DNA of 64,000 nt from positions 1,426,065-1,490,064 of the forward strand of contig OY764868.1 of the NCBI GenBank assembly GCA_963668545.1, in the 5' to 3' direction. Source of the stretch: Spirochaetia bacterium. GTDB lineage: Bacteria > Spirochaetota > Spirochaetia > CADAEX01. The notes under the pieces were generated by a model. The model saw only the letters and a list, made by a program, of their open reading frames with translations, was not told where the DNA came from and made no database searches. Positions 11,546-56,064 of the stretch are shown here, in pieces. Both the position numbers and the translations under genes were made by a program. How positions within the stretch are numbered: position 1 is the stretch's first letter; the number at the start of each line of letters is the position of its first letter.

Positions 11546-12343
11546 TTGAAAAAAGGTTTTCATGAAAGAGTGGAACAGGTCTACAGATCCTGTAATATTG
11601 ACAGAGAATATTGTCCTGAAACAGCTGTTGTTCTCGGTTCAGGCTTGTCTGAGCTGGTGAAATCATACAGCGGAAGGGAAATATCATTTTCAGATATAGA
11701 AGGATTTCCTTCTGTAAACATAAAAGGGCATCCGGGGCTTTTCAAGCTTGCAGAAAAAGCAGTTCTCATGGCAGGGAGGATTCACTTTTATGAGGGACAT
11801 TCCATGGAAGATGTTGTTCTTCCTGTTGCTCTTTTGTGGCGGATGGGGGTAAAAAAAATAATTCTCACAAATGCTGCGGGGGGGGTAAACAGGGAATTTG
11901 TTCCCGGGGACCTTGCACTTATTACTGATCATATAAATCTTACCGGGCAGAACCCTCTGATAGGAAAAAACGAAGGTTTTGAAGGCCCCCGTTTCCCTGA
12001 CATGAGCAGGGTATATGATGAGGAAATAAACAGGGCAGCAATGTCAATAGATCCGGAACTTAGGAAAGGTGTTTATGCAGGACTTACCGGTCCTTCATAT
12101 GAAACACCTGCAGAGATAAGGATGCTTGAAGCAGCAGGAGCTGATATGGTGGGTATGTCTACAGTAAATGAGGCAATTGCTGCAAGGTATCTTGGTATGA
12201 GGGTTGCCGGTATTTCATGTATTACCAATATGGCAGCAGGCATTCTTGATCAGCCTCTTGACCACAGCGAAGTAGTTGAGACAGGGAAAAAGGTCAACAG
12301 GCGGTTCATAAACCTTGTCAGCAGGCTTCTTGAAGAAATATAA
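11546..12343 (+). CDS. purine nucleoside phosphorylase (PNP/MTAP family I)
   Basis: 265 aa. Motifs VVLGSGL, GRIHFYEGH and TVNEAIAARYLGMRVAGISCITNMAAG are typical of trimeric PNP. Confidence 0.85.
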   Translation: MKKGFHERVEQVYRSCNIDREYCPETAVVLGSGLSELVKSYSGREISFSDIEGFPSVNIKGHPGLFKLAEKAVLMAGRIHFYEGHSMEDVVLPVALLWRMGVKKIILTNAAGGVNREFVPGDLALITDHINLTGQNPLIGKNEGFEGPRFPDMSRVYDEEINRAAMSIDPELRKGVYAGLTGPSYETPAEIRMLEAAGADMVGMSTVNEAIAARYLGMRVAGISCITNMAAGILDQPLDHSEVVETGKKVNRRFINLVSRLLEEI

Positions 12344-12370: not shown

Positions 12371-14767
12371 ATGAAAGCATCAGAAAAATTCTCAGCGCCT
12401 GTTATACAGCAGATGCGGAAAGCTGTTTCAGATACAGGGGGAAATGAAGTAATGTTTACAGGCCGGAGCGGAGACAGCGGCCTGATTGAACATATAGAAA
12501 CAGCAGCCCGGGGAAACGAGAATTCTGTTCCTGCACTTGAAGGATTTGTAGACAGGGGGGATGTTGTTATTCATAACCATCCCGGAGGAAACCTTAGCCC
12601 AAGTGCTGCAGATTTGAGAATAGCATCAATACTGGGAAATCAGGGGATAGGTTTTTATATTATCAATAATGAGGTCACTGAAGTTTATGCAGTGGCTGAA
12701 ACTGTTGCTGAAAGGATAGTCCCTTTAAATACAGATGAAATCAAATCACACCTGGAACCTGGCGGGTCTTTATCAGGAATCTTTGAAAAGTACGAAGTAA
12801 GGCCGTCCCAGATTGAGATGCTTTGCGATGTTGCTGATGCAATTAACAATGAGGAAATCATAATTGCAGAAGCAGGCACCGGGGTCGGAAAATCGCTTGC
12901 TTATCTTATTCCTGCATTCCAGTGGGTTATTAATAATAATGACAGGATAGTAATATCAACAGGGACAATAAACCTTCAGCACCAGCTTATTGAAAAAGAT
13001 ATTCCTCTTGTCAGAAAAATGCTTAAGACAGATAAAAAGGCTGCCCTTGTAAAAGGAAGGGGCAATTATGTCTGCATGAGAAAATATCTGGAAAAACTGA
13101 ATGAAACTTCCCTTTTCAATGAAACAGACAGGGAACTGATGCTTATAAAGGAATGGGTTGAGACAACAGATACAGGAGATAAGTCTGACTTGAGTTTTCT
13201 TCCCGACCATGCACTGTGGGGAGATATTGCTTCCGAATCAGATTACTGTCTCGGGCTGCACTGTCCGTACCGGGAAAAGTGTTTTGTGATAAAATCAAGG
13301 AAAAGAGCTGCCGCGGCACAGATACTTGTTGTAAATCACCATATACTCTTTTCAGATATATCAGCAAGAAGTGCAGGGGGAGGTTTCAACGGTACAGCTG
13401 TCCTTCCCGGGTTCAGCAGAATTGTATTTGATGAAGCACATAATATGGAAAATGCTGCCACCTCATTTTATTCTCCGACACTGTCCCGGGGTATGATGTT
13501 TAAGACTATTACAAAAATATACAGAAGAAAAAAGGGGCGGATATCAGGTATATATGTGAGCCTTAAAAACAGTGAAGGGGCTGAAGATAAAATCGAAGAG
13601 ATACCTTCACTGACAGCTGAGGCTGTCAGTGAATTCGAGCTTCTGGAAAAGGAGGCTGAAGATCTTCTCAAGGGATCATATAACCTGAGGATAGATCATG
13701 AAGAAAAATTTGATAATCTGCTTTCCAGAACAGCATCTCTTAAAAGTCATCTTTCAAAAATACATATGATTATTGATGATATTACACAGGGAATGGATTT
13801 TTCCCCTGAAGATGATGCCGGGGTTTATGAAATAATTCTGATAAAAAACAAGCTTCAGGGGCTTGTCTCAACCTGTGAAAAACTTCTCGATACTGATGAC
13901 AACTATATACCGTGGTTTGAAAAATCAAAAAGAATCTTTTTCTATGTTACACCAATTGATATTAGCAGGATACTTCAGGATACTCTTTACAGCAAAGTCA
14001 AATCAATAGTATTTACCTCTGCAACACTCAGTATAAGTTCAAAATTCAGTTTCTGGAAAAAAAGGGTGGGGCTGGATTCTGAAATGTTTCCTGTCACAGA
14101 GAATATCTATAAATCCCCTTTCAATTATGAAAAGAATGTGCTTCTGGGGATCCCCCAGGATCTTCCTGATCCCTCAGATGAAGAATACACGGAAAAACTT
14201 TCACAGTTTATCTATGATTCACTGCTGATATCTGAAGGTAAGGGACTTGTCCTTTTTACATCATATACAATGCTGATGAAAGTATATGAAAGTATTAGGG
14301 ACAGACTTGTTGAAAACAAGATCATGGTTTACAGACAGGGGGAAGATGACCGTTTCAGGCTGCTGAGATCTTTTAACAGTGACAGGAACAGCGTGCTGCT
14401 TGCAACAGATTCATTCTGGGAAGGGGTGGACAGTCCGGGAGATACTCTTAAAAATCTTATTATATGCAGACTCCCTTTCAGGGTTCCTTCTGATCCTGTC
14501 ATTAAGGCAAGAATGGACAGGATTGCTGAAAACGGTGGCAACCCCTTTATGGATTTTTCTCTTCCTGAAGCGGTCATCAAGCTCAAGCAGGGATTCGGAA
14601 GACTTATGAGGGCTAAAGATGACAGAGGTGTTGTGCAGATAACTGATAACAGAATACTCAGGAAACAGTACGGTTCAATTTTTCTTAAGTCTCTTCCTGA
14701 AGCATCAAGATATTTCGGAACAGCGGAAAATCTTCACTCCAAAATCGAGGATTTTTTATACAGCTGA
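12371..14767 (+). CDS. dinG: DinG-family Fe-S (Rad3/XPD-like) helicase with N-terminal RadC-like JAB/JAMM domain
   Basis: 798 aa. Residues ~1-115 carry a JAMM motif H-N-H-P-x7-S-x2-D (VIHNHPGGNLSPSAADLRIA). Motif I AEAGTGVGKSLAYL follows. Four Cys of the Fe-S domain are present (CMRKY...CLGLHCPYREKC), then DEAH-like FDEAHN and C-terminal helicase motifs. Confidence 0.8.
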   Translation: MKASEKFSAPVIQQMRKAVSDTGGNEVMFTGRSGDSGLIEHIETAARGNENSVPALEGFVDRGDVVIHNHPGGNLSPSAADLRIASILGNQGIGFYIINNEVTEVYAVAETVAERIVPLNTDEIKSHLEPGGSLSGIFEKYEVRPSQIEMLCDVADAINNEEIIIAEAGTGVGKSLAYLIPAFQWVINNNDRIVISTGTINLQHQLIEKDIPLVRKMLKTDKKAALVKGRGNYVCMRKYLEKLNETSLFNETDRELMLIKEWVETTDTGDKSDLSFLPDHALWGDIASESDYCLGLHCPYREKCFVIKSRKRAAAAQILVVNHHILFSDISARSAGGGFNGTAVLPGFSRIVFDEAHNMENAATSFYSPTLSRGMMFKTITKIYRRKKGRISGIYVSLKNSEGAEDKIEEIPSLTAEAVSEFELLEKEAEDLLKGSYNLRIDHEEKFDNLLSRTASLKSHLSKIHMIIDDITQGMDFSPEDDAGVYEIILIKNKLQGLVSTCEKLLDTDDNYIPWFEKSKRIFFYVTPIDISRILQDTLYSKVKSIVFTSATLSISSKFSFWKKRVGLDSEMFPVTENIYKSPFNYEKNVLLGIPQDLPDPSDEEYTEKLSQFIYDSLLISEGKGLVLFTSYTMLMKVYESIRDRLVENKIMVYRQGEDDRFRLLRSFNSDRNSVLLATDSFWEGVDSPGDTLKNLIICRLPFRVPSDPVIKARMDRIAENGGNPFMDFSLPEAVIKLKQGFGRLMRAKDDRGVVQITDNRILRKQYGSIFLKSLPEASRYFGTAENLHSKIEDFLYS

Positions 14768-14791: not shown

Positions 14792-14817
14792 AAAAAAGCC
14801 CGGCAGAAAAACCGGGC
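14792..14817 (-). terminator. rho-independent terminator of groES, shared with the convergent dinG
   Basis: Stem GCCCGG/CCGGGC with an 8-nt loop. On the minus strand it is followed by TTTTTT. Confidence 0.7.
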
Positions 14818-14842: not shown

Positions 14843-15109
14843 TTATTCTACAATTGCAATAATATCATTTGCCTTGAGAATGAGGAATTCCTCCCCATCG
14901 ATTTTGATAGATGTTCCGGCATATTTATCATACATGATTTTCTGGCCGATTTTAACTTTAATTACATCTTTATCATCACCAATAGCTGATACAACGCCTG
15001 TCTGGGTTTTTTCCTGTGCTGTCTGAGGTATGTATAGTCCCCCTTTTGTTTTTTCTTCTGACTCAGAGATTTTAACAAGTACACGGTCCCCTAAAGGTGT
15101 GATTTTCAT
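14843..15109 (-). CDS. groES: co-chaperonin GroES
   Basis: 88 aa, MKITPLGDRVLVK...GGLYIPQTAQEK. No groEL follows it. The downstream space is occupied by the convergent dinG. Confidence 0.95.
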   Translation of the reverse strand: MKITPLGDRVLVKISESEEKTKGGLYIPQTAQEKTQTGVVSAIGDDKDVIKVKIGQKIMYDKYAGTSIKIDGEEFLILKANDIIAIVE

Positions 15110-15430: not shown

Positions 15431-16300
15431 ATGACAGCAGAAAGAACTAGGCTTTATAACAGCCAGTCAAATGATGAAAATGTATTATCAATCTATCTTA
15501 AAGAAATTAATGCAATACCGCTTCTTTCAAGAGAAGATGAGGATAAATATGCCAGGCTTGCAGCTGATGGCGATGAAAAGGCAAGAGAGATACTTATTAA
15601 ATCCAATCTCCGTTTTGTTGTTAATGTTGCCAAGAAATATCAGAACAAGGGAATTCCCCTTTCTGATCTTATCAATGAAGGTAATATAGGTTTGATGAAT
15701 GCAATAGAAAAGTATGATGTCGACCGCGGCTATCATTTTATTTCATATGCAGTATGGTGGATAAAACAGTCAATTCTCAAGTCAATAGGCGAAAAATCAA
15801 GAATGATAAGGCTGCCGTTAAACAGAGCAGGTGAACTGGTGCAGATAGAAAGGGCAAAAAAGGAACTACTTTCAGAGAATGGCATTGATCCCGAGCTTCA
15901 GGAAATAGCTGATGCAGTAGGACTTGATGAGGAACATGTAAGAGATCTCATTGATATATCACGTGATCTTGTTTCTATAGATAATCCTGTAAAGTCAGGT
16001 GAAAAAGAATCTGCACTTCTGAGTGATTATATTGTTGATAATAAGACACCTCAGCCGGAAGATATTGTTATTGACAGTTCTCTCAAGGAGGAAATAAACA
16101 AACTTCTTGAAACACTTTCAGAAAAGGAAGCTGATATAATTGAACAGAGATTCGGTCTTAACGGTATTATACCTATGTCGCTGAAGGAAATTGGAGACAG
16201 ATATAACCTGACAAAAGAAAGGATAAGACAGATAGAAAAGAAAGCTATTGACAGAATGAAACATGTTTCAAGAAGCCGTTATCTGGAAGCTTTTGTTTGA
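15431..16300 (+). CDS. rpoS: group-2 sigma70-family sigma factor (RpoS-like; regions 1.2-4.2, no region 1.1)
   Basis: 289 aa. Region 2 (DLINEGNIGLMNAIEKYD; YAVWWIKQSI) and region 4.2 HTH (SLKEIGDRYNLTKERIRQIEKKAIDRM). Too short for RpoD. Preceded by a sigma54 promoter, as for Borrelia rpoS. Confidence 0.8.
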   Translation: MTAERTRLYNSQSNDENVLSIYLKEINAIPLLSREDEDKYARLAADGDEKAREILIKSNLRFVVNVAKKYQNKGIPLSDLINEGNIGLMNAIEKYDVDRGYHFISYAVWWIKQSILKSIGEKSRMIRLPLNRAGELVQIERAKKELLSENGIDPELQEIADAVGLDEEHVRDLIDISRDLVSIDNPVKSGEKESALLSDYIVDNKTPQPEDIVIDSSLKEEINKLLETLSEKEADIIEQRFGLNGIIPMSLKEIGDRYNLTKERIRQIEKKAIDRMKHVSRSRYLEAFV

Positions 16301-53454: not shown

Positions 53455-56064
53455 CTAACCATCCAGTTTCTTTGAAATTTCTTTTATTTCAATAATTTCA
53501 ATAATATCACCAACCTGTATATCTGTGAAGTTTTCAAGACCGATACCACATTCATAACCTGTAGCTACTTCCTTGGCATCATCCTTGAAACGCTTGAGCG
53601 ATGATATTTTTCCGCTGAAAATGTCAATACCGTCTCTGTAAAGATGGGCAACTCCCCCTCTCAGTACCTTACCGCTTGTGACATAGCAGCCTGCTATTGT
53701 GCCTATTTTGGGAACCTTGAATGTTTCACGAACCTCGACAGTACCGACAGTTTCCTCTTTAAGTTCAGGAGCAAGCATACCTTCAAGGGCAGTCTTTATA
53801 TCTTCAACAGCATCATAAATTATATTGTATTTCTTAATTTCAACCTTTTCCTGATCTGCAAGAAGCTGTGCCTTGGGAGTCGGCCTTACATGGAACCCGA
53901 CAATGATCGCATTTGAAGCAGAAGCAAGGTTGACATCATTTTCAATGATAGCTCCGGCTGACGAATGTATTACATTAAGCCTTATTTCCTTTGTACTGAG
54001 CTTTTCAAGAGCAATCTTGAGCGCTTCAACAGACCCCTGTACATCTCCCTTGATTATAGCCTTGAGTTCCTGGATCTCACCATCCTGAATTGAATCATAG
54101 AGATTATCCAGAGTTACTTTCTTGACATTCTTGGCAGCACCTATTTTTTCAAGTTCCTGACGTTTTTCTCCAATCTGCCTTGCATATTTTTCATTTTCAG
54201 TTACCTGGAACGGATCACCTGCATTAGGCATACCTGTAAATCCTGAAATTTCAACAGGAGTTGCAGGAGGAGCTGAATCAACTTTTTTCCCCTTGTCATT
54301 GAACATTGCCCTGACTTTGCCCGGATAAACACCTGCAATGAAAGCATCACCTACCTTAAGTGTACCCCTCTCAATAAGAACGGTTGATACAATTCCCCTT
54401 CCATGGTCCATCTTTGATTCAATAATCTTGCCTTCTGCCCTGCAGTTGGGGTTTGCCTTGAGTTCAAGCACTTCTGACTGAAGAAGAATGTTTTCCAGAA
54501 GATCATCTATACCTGTTTTCTTGAGAGCGGAAATATTTGTGAAAATTGTATTTCCTCCCCAGTCTTCAGGTATGAGGTTGTATTCTGAAAGCTGCTGCTT
54601 TACCCTGTCAGGATTGGCATCGTGAAGATCTGTTTTATTTACAGCAACAATGATTGGCACACCTGCTTCCTTTGCATGGTTTATTGCTTCAACAGTCTGA
54701 GGCATAACACCGTCATTTGCTGCAACAACAAGTACTACAATATCTGTTATCTGTGCACCTCTTGCCCTCATGAGAGTAAATGCCTCATGACCGGGAGTAT
54801 CAAGAAAAACAACACTCTTTCCTTCGGCAACATTGACTTTATATGCCCCTATGTGCTGAGTAATACCGCCGTGTTCAGAACCTGCAATATCTGTTGATTT
54901 TATTGCATCAAGAAGTTTTGTTTTACCGTGGTCAACATGCCCCATTACAGTTACTATAGGGGGTCTCTCCATTATATCGTCATCATTGCCTTTATCGCAT
55001 TCTACAATTGTCTCTTCATAAAGGGATACAATATTTACCTTGCAGTCAAACTCAGATGCAACAATCTCTGCAGTTTCAGCATCAATCTGCTGGTTGATTG
55101 TGACCATCATGCCGAGTCCCATCAGTTTTGCAATAAGCTCTGATGCTTTAAGGTTCATCTTTTTAGCAAGTTCAGAAACAGTAACAACTTCCATAATATC
55201 AATTTCTTTCGGAACAGGATTAGCCATCTGTACTGATTTCTTCTTGATCTGGAAATCTTTTTCAATGATATTTTCTTTTTTTGTTTTCTGGTATGATGTT
55301 TTTTTCTTTGCCTTGAAAAACTTCTTGGTGGAAGATTTTGATGCAGTTTCAGGTTTTATGGGGGCACCACCTGCCGGCTGACCCTGTCTTGGAGGTCTCT
55401 GGCCGTCACGGGGCTGGAACCCGCCCTGTCTTGGAGGTCTCTGGCCGTCACGGGGCTGATAACCGCCCTGTCTCTGACCGTCACGGGGCTGATAACCGCC
55501 CTGTCTCTGACCGTCACGGGGCTGATAACCGCCCTGTCTCTGGCCGTCACGGGGCTGATAACCGCCCTGTCTCTGACCGTCACGGGGCTGATAACCGCCC
55601 TGTCTCTGACCGTCACGGGGCTGATAACCGCCCTGTCTCTGACCGTCACGGGGCTGATAACCGCCCTGTCTCGGAGGTCTCTGACCGTCTCTCTGCTGAT
55701 AACCGCCCTGTCTCTGGCCGTCACGGGGCTGATAACTGCTTCTGTCTGAATCGAATGATCTCACTCTATCACTTGGAGAAGGCCTTTTATCAGAAGGAGA
55801 TCCTGTTAAAGTATTGAGTTTCTCCGCAGTTGTTCTTTTAGCTGGAGCAGAATCATCTTTTCTGGCTTTACCTGCCGGTTTATGCTTTACAGTCTCATCA
55901 GTTGTATCTTTTTTCCCTGATTTTTTTACTACAACTACTTTTTTCTTGACAACAACAACCTTCTTTTTTTCTTCTTCGTCAGGTCCTTTATGGTTTGTCT
56001 GAGGTTTTTTGTGTTTAATCAATGTTGTTTTTGGTTTTTCTTTTTTATCCTGTTCTTCTGCCAT
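53455..56064 (-). CDS. infB: translation initiation factor IF-2 with repetitive N-terminal domain
   Basis: 869 aa with G-domain (GHVDHGKT, DTPGH, NKTD) and C-terminal domains. The N-terminus carries about 11 tandem copies of G-G-Y-Q-P-R-D-G-Q-R-Q. Confidence 0.95.
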   Translation of the reverse strand: MAEEQDKKEKPKTTLIKHKKPQTNHKGPDEEEKKKVVVVKKKVVVVKKSGKKDTTDETVKHKPAGKARKDDSAPAKRTTAEKLNTLTGSPSDKRPSPSDRVRSFDSDRSSYQPRDGQRQGGYQQRDGQRPPRQGGYQPRDGQRQGGYQPRDGQRQGGYQPRDGQRQGGYQPRDGQRQGGYQPRDGQRQGGYQPRDGQRQGGYQPRDGQRPPRQGGFQPRDGQRPPRQGQPAGGAPIKPETASKSSTKKFFKAKKKTSYQKTKKENIIEKDFQIKKKSVQMANPVPKEIDIMEVVTVSELAKKMNLKASELIAKLMGLGMMVTINQQIDAETAEIVASEFDCKVNIVSLYEETIVECDKGNDDDIMERPPIVTVMGHVDHGKTKLLDAIKSTDIAGSEHGGITQHIGAYKVNVAEGKSVVFLDTPGHEAFTLMRARGAQITDIVVLVVAANDGVMPQTVEAINHAKEAGVPIIVAVNKTDLHDANPDRVKQQLSEYNLIPEDWGGNTIFTNISALKKTGIDDLLENILLQSEVLELKANPNCRAEGKIIESKMDHGRGIVSTVLIERGTLKVGDAFIAGVYPGKVRAMFNDKGKKVDSAPPATPVEISGFTGMPNAGDPFQVTENEKYARQIGEKRQELEKIGAAKNVKKVTLDNLYDSIQDGEIQELKAIIKGDVQGSVEALKIALEKLSTKEIRLNVIHSSAGAIIENDVNLASASNAIIVGFHVRPTPKAQLLADQEKVEIKKYNIIYDAVEDIKTALEGMLAPELKEETVGTVEVRETFKVPKIGTIAGCYVTSGKVLRGGVAHLYRDGIDIFSGKISSLKRFKDDAKEVATGYECGIGLENFTDIQVGDIIEIIEIKEISKKLDG
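55381..55745. repeat. 33-bp tandem coding repeat (~11 copies) inside the infB 5' region
   Basis: Plus-strand unit ACCGCCCTGTCTCTGACCGTCACGGGGCTGATA repeats with minor variants. Encodes the GGYQPRDGQRQ repeats of IF-2. Confidence 0.9.

Follow-up and report, generated by a model that had tools for sequence, protein, structure and literature searches.

The question raised by this locus is whether a RadC-like JAB/JAMM domain has genuinely been joined to a DinG-family Fe–S helicase within a single polypeptide and, if so, what the appended domain does there. The sequence-only reading of the window (the whole 64-kb stretch of spirochete DNA that was analyzed) had proposed such a fusion and had regarded it as a different solution from the DinG proteins that carry an exonuclease or nothing at this position. 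The JAB-DinG fusion is real and intact, but it was already known, and the idea that its JAB domain might be a nuclease or an isopeptidase is also already in the literature. RadC-JAB/DinG fusions were described in spirochetes by Iyer et al. in 2011 (NAR; PMC3239186), and a nuclease role, with the JAB replacing the 3′–5′ exonuclease, was proposed in the same paper. A ‘RadC-like DinG’ subgroup was then named and modeled in a 2025 review, with members in the Spirochaetales and Brachyspirales, and Table S1 of that review places Spirochaeta thermophila and Brachyspira hyodysenteriae in it (PMC11981726). The window gene is best explained as belonging to this subgroup, with a chromosomal location and vertical inheritance. 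A literature search for experimental work on RadC-like DinG found none, and a search for RadC nuclease activity, or for RadC together with DNA–protein crosslinks, gave nothing relevant beyond the computational studies PMC3239186, PMC5512222, and PMC11981726. The features of the gene are as follows.

12371..14767, + strand: complete RadC-like DinG gene, 798 amino acids plus stop, ATG start (open reading frame listing)
12371..12700, + strand: RadC-type JAB/MPN domain, residues 1–110 (AF2 domain model, Foldseek, family profile, PF04002)
12446..12448, + strand: codon of E26, the upstream catalytic Glu of the JAMM site, present in 190/190 relatives and aligned with the AfJAMM catalytic Glu (profile alignment)
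12509..12547, + strand: loop A-R47-G48-N-x-x-x-V-P54-A-L, residues 47–59, beside the active site; conserved, low-confidence
12572..12613, + strand: HNHPGGNLSPSAAD, JAMM metal-binding core with H68, H70, S78, and D81 (regex scan of the window)
12701..12748, + strand: linker from JAB to helicase, residues 111–126, variable in alignment A1; the YoaA profile starts at 127
12749..14713, + strand: YoaA/DinG-like SF2 helicase core, residues 127–781 (NF053712 YoaA, PDB DinG matches, Foldseek 6fwr)
12872..12895, + strand: motif I/Walker A AGTGVGKS, residues 168–175; K174 in 190/190
13073..13282, + strand: predicted Fe–S cluster domain with C235, C293, C298, and C304 (cysteine positions and conservation)
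13430..13441, + strand: motif II DEAH, residues 354–357 (FDEAHN, 353–358); D354 and E355 in 190/190
13487..13900, + strand: putative arch domain, ~ residues 373–510, boundaries approximate; fold matches to DinG and XPD
14225..14701, + strand: Helicase_C_2 (motor domain 2), residues 619–777, including motif VI QGFGRLMR (PF13307)

Reading frame and N-terminal domain

The fusion was found as a single uninterrupted open reading frame at exactly the coordinates originally given, and no upstream extension of the 798-residue frame is possible. A protein identical to that of the window (P0011) is encoded on a 3.79-Mb contig in NCBI and ENA, and the same protein is present in two independent assemblies. 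A doubt expressed with the original reading was that two genes might have been joined through a sequencing frameshift at about nt 12700–12780. In favor of such an artefact, a small number of relatives are split or cut short: proteins of 200 and 584 residues (P0001 and P0018) lie on one 561-kb contig, and short open reading frames were seen at two further loci (L009 and L015). In the split relatives, however, the break falls inside the helicase, at about residue 198, and not at the domain junction. No frameshift was detected in the suspected interval of the window, and almost every complete locus, across several phyla, has the same continuous open reading frame. Because the architecture is unchanged in ~ 190 full-length relatives belonging to several phyla, and the window frame is itself continuous, a fusion created by frameshift or mis-assembly was ruled out, and the chance that the gene is such an artefact is negligible.

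The N-terminal region had been said to hold a complete JAMM signature, and E26, the HNHP segment, S78, and D81 are indeed all present. The motif, H68-N-H70-P-GGNLSP-S78-AA-D81, has the canonical HxHx7Sx2D spacing and takes the RadC-type form HNHP(S/G)G..PS..D. A JAMM/HNHP match was unique to this gene across all six frames of the 64-kb window, and because it is the only match there, and is identical in relatives, the motif is, as judged from sequence, more than a chance match. The AF2 model of the domain (pLDDT 88.5) contains helices at residues 9–21 and 79–89 and strands at residues 27–33, 39–47, 64–69, 94–98, and 104–109. In a Foldseek search with this model the top match was RadC 2qlc (E = 1.3e-5), followed by AfJAMM (3.6e-4), with further matches to CSN5, Rpn11, PfJAMM1, and AMSH, the TM-scores being only ~ 0.5. 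The family profile matched RadC 2qlc in the PDB with E = 1.5e-6, and it aligned with AfJAMM 1oi0 over residues 6–91, catalytic Glu included.

The profile search suggested with the original reading gave a divided result for the window protein, since Helicase_C_2 was clearly matched whereas RadC (PF04002) reached 18.6 bits with the whole protein and 21.2 bits with the domain alone, against a gathering score of 22.1. The family, on the other hand, matched PF04002 with 38 of 39 N-domains (E ≤ 0.01; best E = 2.8e-8). RadC and JAB were the sole families detected by Pfam and NCBIfam in residues 1–140, and no exonuclease family was detected in that segment. An unrelated N-terminal fold was looked for, as it had been named as grounds for rejecting the fusion, and profiles and Foldseek gave RadC/JAMM folds only; a chance HxH..S..D arrangement on an unrelated fold was ruled out by the Pfam, PDB-profile, and Foldseek results at the family level. 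On the strength of the family-level PF04002 matches, the profile match to 2qlc, and the fold matches of the AF2 model, the N-terminal domain is assigned to the RadC-type JAB/MPN class, a point that the family evidence settles. Stand-alone RadC/YicR (PF04002, 2qlc), which is the best sequence-profile and fold match of the N-domain, has the same JAB subtype, with HNHPSG..PS..D, two His residues flanking an invariant Asn, and a Glu upstream of them, but canonical RadC carries an N-terminal HhH domain and no helicase (PMC3239186). Within the loop at residues 47–59, G48 never varies and R47 and P54 reach at least 90% conservation, while residues 49–59 have a pLDDT < 50 in the full-length model; this may be a substrate-binding loop.

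Helicase module and known DinG types

The helicase motifs named by the sequence-only reading (AGTGVGKS, four cysteines, FDEAHN, and the C-terminal motifs) were all recovered. Motif I had been placed immediately after the JAB domain; the order was correct, but ~ 55 residues lie between the two, taken up by the linker (~ 111–126) and the beginning of the helicase module. The Pfam Helicase_C_2 model (PF13307) scored 156.4 bits (E = 9e-46; gathering score 25.3), Pfam DEAD was matched too, and motif VI, QGFGRLMR, is located at residue 740. Over residues 127–795 the NCBIfam scores were 579 bits for YoaA and 501 bits for Bacillus-type DinG. The four Fe–S cysteines sit in motor domain 1, between motifs Ia and II, and are predicted to bind a cluster. 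The full-length AF2 model (pLDDT 84.5, pTM 0.80) has a four-domain fold (motor domain 1, Fe–S, arch, and motor domain 2), with arch helices at residues 411–433, 445–472, and 483–506 lying between the two motor domains, and Foldseek matched it to E. coli DinG 6fwr (E = 2e-39), S. aureus DinG, XPD, and CasDinG. Profiles and predicted structure together identify the helicase half as a DinG/XPD-family SF2 Fe–S helicase of the YoaA/DinG type.

YoaA is the E. coli paralogue of DinG and works with the HolC/chi subunit. Its NCBIfam model (NF053712) was the best of those matched, at 579.1 bits over profile positions 3–619 of 630, and the two proteins share a length class and the Fe–S helicase; the window protein nevertheless falls below the equivalog cutoff (579.1 versus 680), and YoaA itself has no N-terminal JAB. 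According to the 2025 review, organisms that carry RadC-like DinG lack HolC (PMC11981726). The helicase core is likewise homologous to that of the firmicute ExoDinG (PDB 8zef, 9ii8; E = 1.7e-45 by sequence and 2e-32 by fold), whose accessory catalytic domain is also N-terminal. The S. aureus structure 8zef aligns from its residue 251 onward with residue 143 of the query, which puts the exonuclease domain of that protein where the window protein has its JAB, in agreement with what had been said of firmicute DinG. The ExoDinG domain, however, has an RNase H-like DnaQ fold, whereas that of the window protein is JAB/deaminase-like. The ExoDinG models NF005981 and TIGR01407 gave 501 and 376 bits (cutoffs 789 and 548), and their alignments start at model positions 244–248, leaving the exonuclease part unmatched. 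Equivalog membership was thus rejected for both YoaA and ExoDinG, the scores being under the curated cutoffs.

E. coli DinG (6fwr, 6fws) was the best structural match (E = 2e-39; TM 0.71 on target) and has the same Fe–S domain, arch, and two motor domains, but it has no N-terminal catalytic domain, and its NCBIfam model reached 382 bits against a cutoff of 598. The DinG-family fold is also shared with CasDinG/Csf4. The generic PADLOC ‘typeIV_DinG associated’ model scored 446 bits, but the curated NCBIfam model TIGR03117 scored 111 bits against a cutoff of 400, and CasDinG has a pseudo-Fe–S domain (PMC11981726) where the window protein has four Fe–S cysteines. No cas genes were called within 5 kb on either side of the gene, no CRISPR-like repeats were found in a tandem-repeat scan of the whole window, and no defence partners were found in the neighborhood of the fusion gene. 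The Csf4 score, the Fe–S cysteines, and the lack of a cas or CRISPR context rule out a CasDinG or defence assignment. With RadC-like DinG (PMC11981726), by contrast, no substantive difference was found: the same N-terminal JAB (conserved E, two H, and D) is combined with a YoaA-like four-Cys Fe–S core, and the N-domain of the review's model protein from Desulfuromonas soudanensis is 43% identical to that of the window (E = 2e-35). The window protein is another spirochete orthologue, from a clade with HNHPGG.

Conservation, distribution, and genomic neighborhood

The catalytic residues of both modules are 96–100% conserved in the ~ 190 full-length relatives. In the JAB domain E26, H68, N69, H70, and D81 were present in 190/190 and S78 in 187/190; in the helicase K174, D354, and E355 were identical in all 190, and the Fe–S cysteines C235, C293, C298, and C304 were found in 190, 183, 190, and 190, respectively. 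Both active sites are, as this alignment indicates, under purifying selection. The best 120 full-length matches were all ~ 800 residues long with 100% coverage, and nearly all complete genomic loci contained one open reading frame of 800–860 amino acids with the JAB motif, Walker A, and DEAH. An exhaustive profile search gave 876 cluster representatives (50% identity). Among the 150 of these that were listed, the complete proteins had 800–880 residues and the JAB almost always lay in the first ~ 150 residues, with one at 127–254. Among the representatives listed, the DinG-fused JAB forms its own tight subfamily that is essentially always N-terminal, with R47, G48, P54, G92, G94, N100, and E110 as extra conserved positions. 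The commoner form of the motif in the family is HNHPSG, and HNHPGG is that of the window protein's own clade.

The fusion was found in Spirochaetota, Desulfuromonadota, KSB1, Nitrospinota, Nitrospirota, Dadabacteria, and Acidobacteriota, of which the last five go beyond the list in the review (metagenome-assembled genomes, with phyla as labeled in their records). The closest GTDB representative, a Spirochaetia metagenome-assembled genome (OY764342.2), has an N-domain 68% identical to that of the window. The source DNA has a GC content of ~ 38%.

The genes called around the fusion (aspartokinase, purine-nucleoside phosphorylase (PNP), groES, a sigma factor, and ppdK) have housekeeping functions. 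The PNP gene is separated from the fusion gene by 27 nt, and because no plus-strand promoter-like site was found in this gap, cotranscription of the two genes is likely. A search for conserved neighbors was made by all-against-all clustering of flanking open reading frames from 80 related loci and the window. The conserved neighborhood consisted of housekeeping synteny confined to spirochetes, and no neighbor was common to the spirochete loci and those of Geobacter, KSB1, Nitrospinota, and Acidobacteriota. Genes for a ubiquitin-like protein (Ubl), E1, or E2 adjoined the fusion gene neither in the window nor at any of the 80 related loci.

Candidate roles of the JAB domain

One interpretation of these data, to which we give somewhat less than an even chance, is that the JAB is a true metal-dependent nuclease that has displaced the DnaQ exonuclease nonhomologously and degrades or nicks the strand unwound by the helicase. 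Its N-terminal position is that of the S. aureus DinG exonuclease and of the EndoDinG endonuclease (PMC11981726), and the Bacillus ExoDinG model gives the helicase core almost as high a score as the YoaA model does. The argument has been published (PMC3239186, PMC5512222), together with a DNA-related role for RadC-type JABs in general, which lack the ubiquitin-tail groove, and fusions of RadC JABs to HhH, primase, and ArdC-N DNA-binding modules are also on record (PMC3239186); the lack of Ubl partner genes points the same way. However, phosphodiesterase chemistry is without precedent in the JAB fold, the structural neighbors are all peptidases, and the active-site residues exactly match those of isopeptidase JAMMs. 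Note also that radC mutants of E. coli are normally sensitive to DNA damage, as Attaiech et al. 2008 are cited in PMC11981726, which speaks against the general model given below; a 2008 paper cited in PMC11981726 and PMC3239186 bears the title ‘RadC, a misleading name?’. The same active site could instead belong to a metallopeptidase acting on DNA-bound or crosslinked proteins, the helicase meeting a roadblock and presenting it to the protease, which we consider rather unlikely. Here the fully conserved E...HxHx7Sx2D arrangement is that of canonical JAMM peptidases, the functionally characterized structural neighbors are all (iso)peptidases, and the domain sits on motor domain 1 of a presumed 5′–3′ translocase. 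Eukaryotic crosslink repair pairs a protease for DNA–protein crosslinks with an XPD/FANCJ-family helicase, and the parallel with the present protein is our own. The more specific proposal that follows this parallel, in which the JAB would be a metalloprotease clearing covalent crosslinks or tight roadblocks met by its own helicase, as a one-polypeptide counterpart of the eukaryotic pairing, is a long shot. RadC-type JABs are argued to be without a peptide-tail groove (Iyer et al., PMC5512222), and the literature search described above weighs against a peptidase as well.

The JAMM motif, and Foldseek matches to PfJAMM1-SAMP2, BubCD, and a bacterial Ubl-deubiquitinase, would also suit a Ubl isopeptidase of the kind known from the Cap3, Bil, Bub, and archaeal JAMM systems, with control over the helicase or over a conjugated partner. 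By sequence and fold, however, the domain matches the RadC clade best and not the Ubl-associated JABs, the minimal 110-residue domain offers little room for the large insertions of eukaryotic deubiquitinases, and there are neither adjoining Ubl, E1, or E2 genes nor a neighbor conserved across phyla. With only spirochete-specific housekeeping synteny emerging from the neighbor clustering, a JAB belonging to a Ubl system was rejected for the loci compared, and an isopeptidase of this kind is very improbable. It could also be that the JAB is noncatalytic and serves in DNA binding, oligomerization, or autoinhibition, as inactive RadC-JAB/DinG versions are known from some fusobacteria, for which a DNA-binding role was suggested (PMC3239186). 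Every catalytic residue is, however, kept in 187–190 of 190 relatives across phyla, which would be unexpected for a purely structural module and makes this explanation improbable.

The architecture, the two folds, the intact frame, and the strict conservation of both catalytic centers, as established from sequence comparison and predicted structures, allow a general model to be drawn. The minimal JAB (residues 1–110) is tethered to the helicase N terminus by a linker of ~ 15 residues. By analogy with characterized DinG and XPD, the helicase would load on single-stranded DNA and translocate 5′–3′ with ATP, and the JAB site (E26, H68, H70, S78, and D81; presumably Zn-bound) would be brought to a substrate carried on the DNA. 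Since it lies at the position of the ExoDinG exonuclease, the JAB would most likely be, by this analogy, the processing module of a helicase–hydrolase repair enzyme. Identity as a RadC-like DinG, combined with this general model of an active hydrolase delivered by the helicase to DNA-borne substrates, is considered probable. As to the chemistry, nuclease activity or other processing of nucleic acids falls a little short of an even chance, and a peptidase acting on DNA-bound or crosslinked protein is possible but doubtful.

The biochemical role of RadC-type JABs has been unsettled for decades, and a JAB fused to a helicase offers a good experimental handle on it. A JAB hard-wired to a DNA helicase is among the cleanest natural hints that such domains act on DNA or on DNA-attached targets. 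The case for it had been made before, in 2011 and again in 2017, and to this the window contributes just one further spirochete orthologue; the quantitative by-products of the analysis are the near-invariant catalytic centers, the tight N-terminal subfamily, the lack of a cross-phylum partner, and the wider range of phyla. If the crosslink-protease reading were true, the RadC family as a whole would gain its first biochemical function.

The JAB-DinG fusion protein

All of the motifs named in the sequence-only reading were located in a single ORF, which begins at the first possible ATG:

12371..14767 (+), JAB-DinG fusion ORF, 798 aa
E26, upstream Glu of the JAMM motif
nt 12572-12613, JAMM core H68-N-H70-P-GGNLSP-S78-AA-D81, canonical spacing HxHx7Sx2D
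Residues 168-175, Walker A, AGTGVGKS
C235, C293, C298 and C304, four cysteines
Residues 353-358, FDEAHN
Residue 740, motif VI, QGFGRLMR

No JAMM or HNHP match other than this one occurs in the six frames of the 64-kb window. Motif I had been placed immediately after the JAB domain; instead, ~55 residues lie between them, comprising a linker and then the beginning of the helicase, to which the YoaA profile aligns from residue 127 onward.

The RadC profile (PF04002) aligned to residues 65-88 only of the window sequence and scored 18.6 bits with the whole protein and 21.2 bits with the isolated domain, against a gathering score of 22.1. The profile check proposed earlier therefore remained sub-threshold for this sequence alone, while succeeding for its family: 38 of the 39 homologous N-domains in a non-redundant alignment (A1) matched PF04002 (best E = 2.8e-8). 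In A1, E26, G48, H68, N69, H70, P71, P77, D81, G92, G94 and E110 were invariant, and S78 was at least 90% conserved. The A1 profile matched the RadC crystal structure 2qlc (E = 1.5e-6) and, in an alignment covering residues 6-91, placed E26 on the catalytic Glu of AfJAMM 1oi0. An AF2 model of the domain (pLDDT 88.5) retrieved RadC 2qlc first in Foldseek (E = 1.3e-5), followed by AfJAMM, CSN5, Rpn11, PfJAMM1, BubCD and AMSH. Together, these data support assignment of the N-terminal half as a JAB/MPN domain, specifically of the RadC subtype; profile and Foldseek searches both gave RadC/JAMM rather than an unrelated fold. Next to the active site, residues 47-59 (A-R47-G48-N..V-P54-A-L) form a loop that is conserved but was modelled with low confidence; it is a candidate substrate-binding element.

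On the helicase side, the suggested Pfam searches returned Helicase_C_2 (156 bits), DEAD and ResIII, with DEAD_2 sub-threshold. The NCBIfam models for YoaA (579 bits, cutoff 680), Bacillus-type DinG (501 bits) and E. coli DinG (382 bits) all scored below their equivalog cutoffs, and their alignments spanned residues ~127 to 795 only, none taking in the JAB part. In the PDB, the sequence matched the S. aureus '3'-5' exonuclease DinG' 8zef, whose residues 251-874 align with 143-777 of the query (E = 1.7e-45), as well as E. coli DinG 6fwr. The full-length AF2 model (pLDDT 84.5, pTM 0.80) was closest in fold to 6fwr (E = 2e-39, target TM 0.71), S. aureus DinG, XPD and CasDinG. Pfam, profile and fold evidence thus bear out the original interpretation of a RadC-type JAB fused to a DinG helicase.

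Distribution and conservation

A full-length search with the fusion protein gave 4228 matches at E <= 1e-30. The best 120 of these were nearly all ~800 aa, aligned with full coverage and from Spirochaetia, several with a precomputed PF04002 match. Among GTDB species representatives, scanning confirmed at least 355 loci, the best 80 of which include Spirochaetota, Geobacter/Geomonas/Citrifermentans/Geotalea, Desulfuromusa, KSB1, Nitrospinota, Nitrospirota, Dadabacteria and Acidobacteriota; nearly all complete loci carried the JAB motif, then Walker A and DEAH, in one ORF of 800-860 aa. When 1.84 billion cluster representatives were searched exhaustively with an HMM, 876 matched, 546 of them at E <= 1e-10. 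In the 150 that were listed, the JAB domain nearly always lay inside the first ~150 residues and complete proteins were 800-880 aa; the others appear to be contig-end fragments.

Joining of two genes by a frameshift had been raised as a concern. The gene is one ORF, its architecture recurs across phyla and an ENA assembly as well as a 3.79-Mb NCBI contig encode an identical protein; the probability that the fusion is an artefact is considered negligible. E26, H68, N69, H70, D81, K174, D354 and E355 were 100% conserved in 190 full-length members, with S78 kept in 187 and the Fe-S cysteines in 183-190; strong purifying selection acts on both catalytic centres.

In a few relatives the gene was split or truncated (proteins P0001 and P0018; loci L009, 5989-6684, and L015, 6097-6483). 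P0001 and P0018 share a 561,593-bp ENA contig as a 200-aa N-terminal piece (ending '...RIVISTQEQ') and a 584-aa remainder. Each shows ~85% identity to the window protein, and the gene is interrupted within motor domain 1 instead of where the JAB domain meets the helicase. Such genes may be pseudogenes, or the interruptions may stem from indel errors in long-read MAGs. Three further loci (L031, L045 and L061) carry the fusion under the unexpected record titles 'uncultured Rickettsiales', 'uncultured Clostridia' and Nitrospinota, which may reflect true lateral transfer or mis-binned MAG contigs.

Gene neighbourhood

The features around the fusion gene and elsewhere in the window were:

11546..12343 (+), purine-nucleoside phosphorylase (PNP) gene, NF006054, 304 bits; separated from the DinG start by 27 nt
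14798..14817, hairpin, G+C-rich, just past the groES stop and followed by a minus-strand T-run
14843..15109 (-), groES, 88 aa, NCBIfam GroES 112 bits; monocistronic, convergent with the DinG gene
15431..16300 (+), sigma-70-family factor, 289 aa; best on RpoS/RpoD C-terminal models, all below equivalog cutoffs
53455..56064 (-), 869-aa ORF, GTPase motifs judged by eye
55437..55736, 33-bp tandem repeat, 8.8 copies, 89% matches, encoding 11-residue repeats of the 869-aa ORF

Because no promoter-like site was found in the 27-nt gap and the PNP gene lies directly upstream of the DinG gene in 26 spirochete loci, punA-dinG is likely one transcription unit. The ENA call gives a PNP of 179 aa, as against a 265-aa ORF from a TTG; since the longer ORF aligns to the whole PNP profile, the true start probably lies upstream of the deposited one. 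The hairpin, only ~30 nt beyond the DinG stop codon, looks like the groES terminator, and no groEL follows groES on the minus strand. Aspartokinase is encoded upstream, and ppdK and the sigma factor downstream; the latter, conserved there in 32 spirochete loci, resembles a short group-2-like factor more than the primary RpoD.

When flanking ORFs from 80 loci and the window were clustered, synteny was confined to spirochetes, no neighbours were common across phyla and no Ubl, E1, E2 or cas genes were present. A tandem-repeat scan found no CRISPR-like repeats in the window. CasDinG/Csf4 was rejected as an identity, as the generic PADLOC DinG model matches but the curated Csf4 model fails. The 869-aa ORF, whose N-terminal tract holds about nine tandem 11-residue repeats (QGGYQPRDGQR), looks, by its GTPase motifs alone, like translation initiation factor IF-2.

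Predicted activity and relation to the RadC-like DinG subgroup

The analysis establishes the architecture, the fold of each half, the degree of conservation and the lack of partner genes in the flanks. By analogy with DinG and XPD, the helicase core would translocate 5'-3' on ssDNA, driven by ATP, and its Fe-S domain would sit at the junction. The JAB domain would be a processing module, the counterpart of the ExoDinG exonuclease, given its N-terminal position as in the 8zef alignment and the literature.

For the chemistry of the JAB domain, nuclease activity or other nucleic-acid processing is a serious prospect, somewhat short of an even chance; for RadC-JAB/DinG fusions of spirochaetes, a nuclease role in place of the 3'-5' exonuclease was proposed by Iyer et al. 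in 2011 (PMC3239186), an argument restated by Iyer et al. 2017 (PMC5512222). Peptidase action on DNA-bound or crosslinked protein is rather unlikely. According to Iyer et al. 2017 (PMC5512222), RadC JABs are unlikely to possess the ubiquitin-tail groove. An isopeptidase acting on Ubl proteins is highly improbable: the flanks hold no Ubl, E1 or E2 genes. A non-catalytic domain is improbable, the JAMM residues being conserved as described. Another chemistry typical of the deaminase-like fold takes the remaining probability.

Literature searches found no experimental work on RadC-like DinG, a subgroup named in a 2025 review (PMC11981726); its members in Table S1 of that review include Spirochaeta thermophila and Brachyspira hyodysenteriae. 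The window N-domain shares 43% identity (E = 2e-35) with that of the review's model protein, from Desulfuromonas soudanensis. The fusion is an ordinary member of this subgroup, which had been described and named before.
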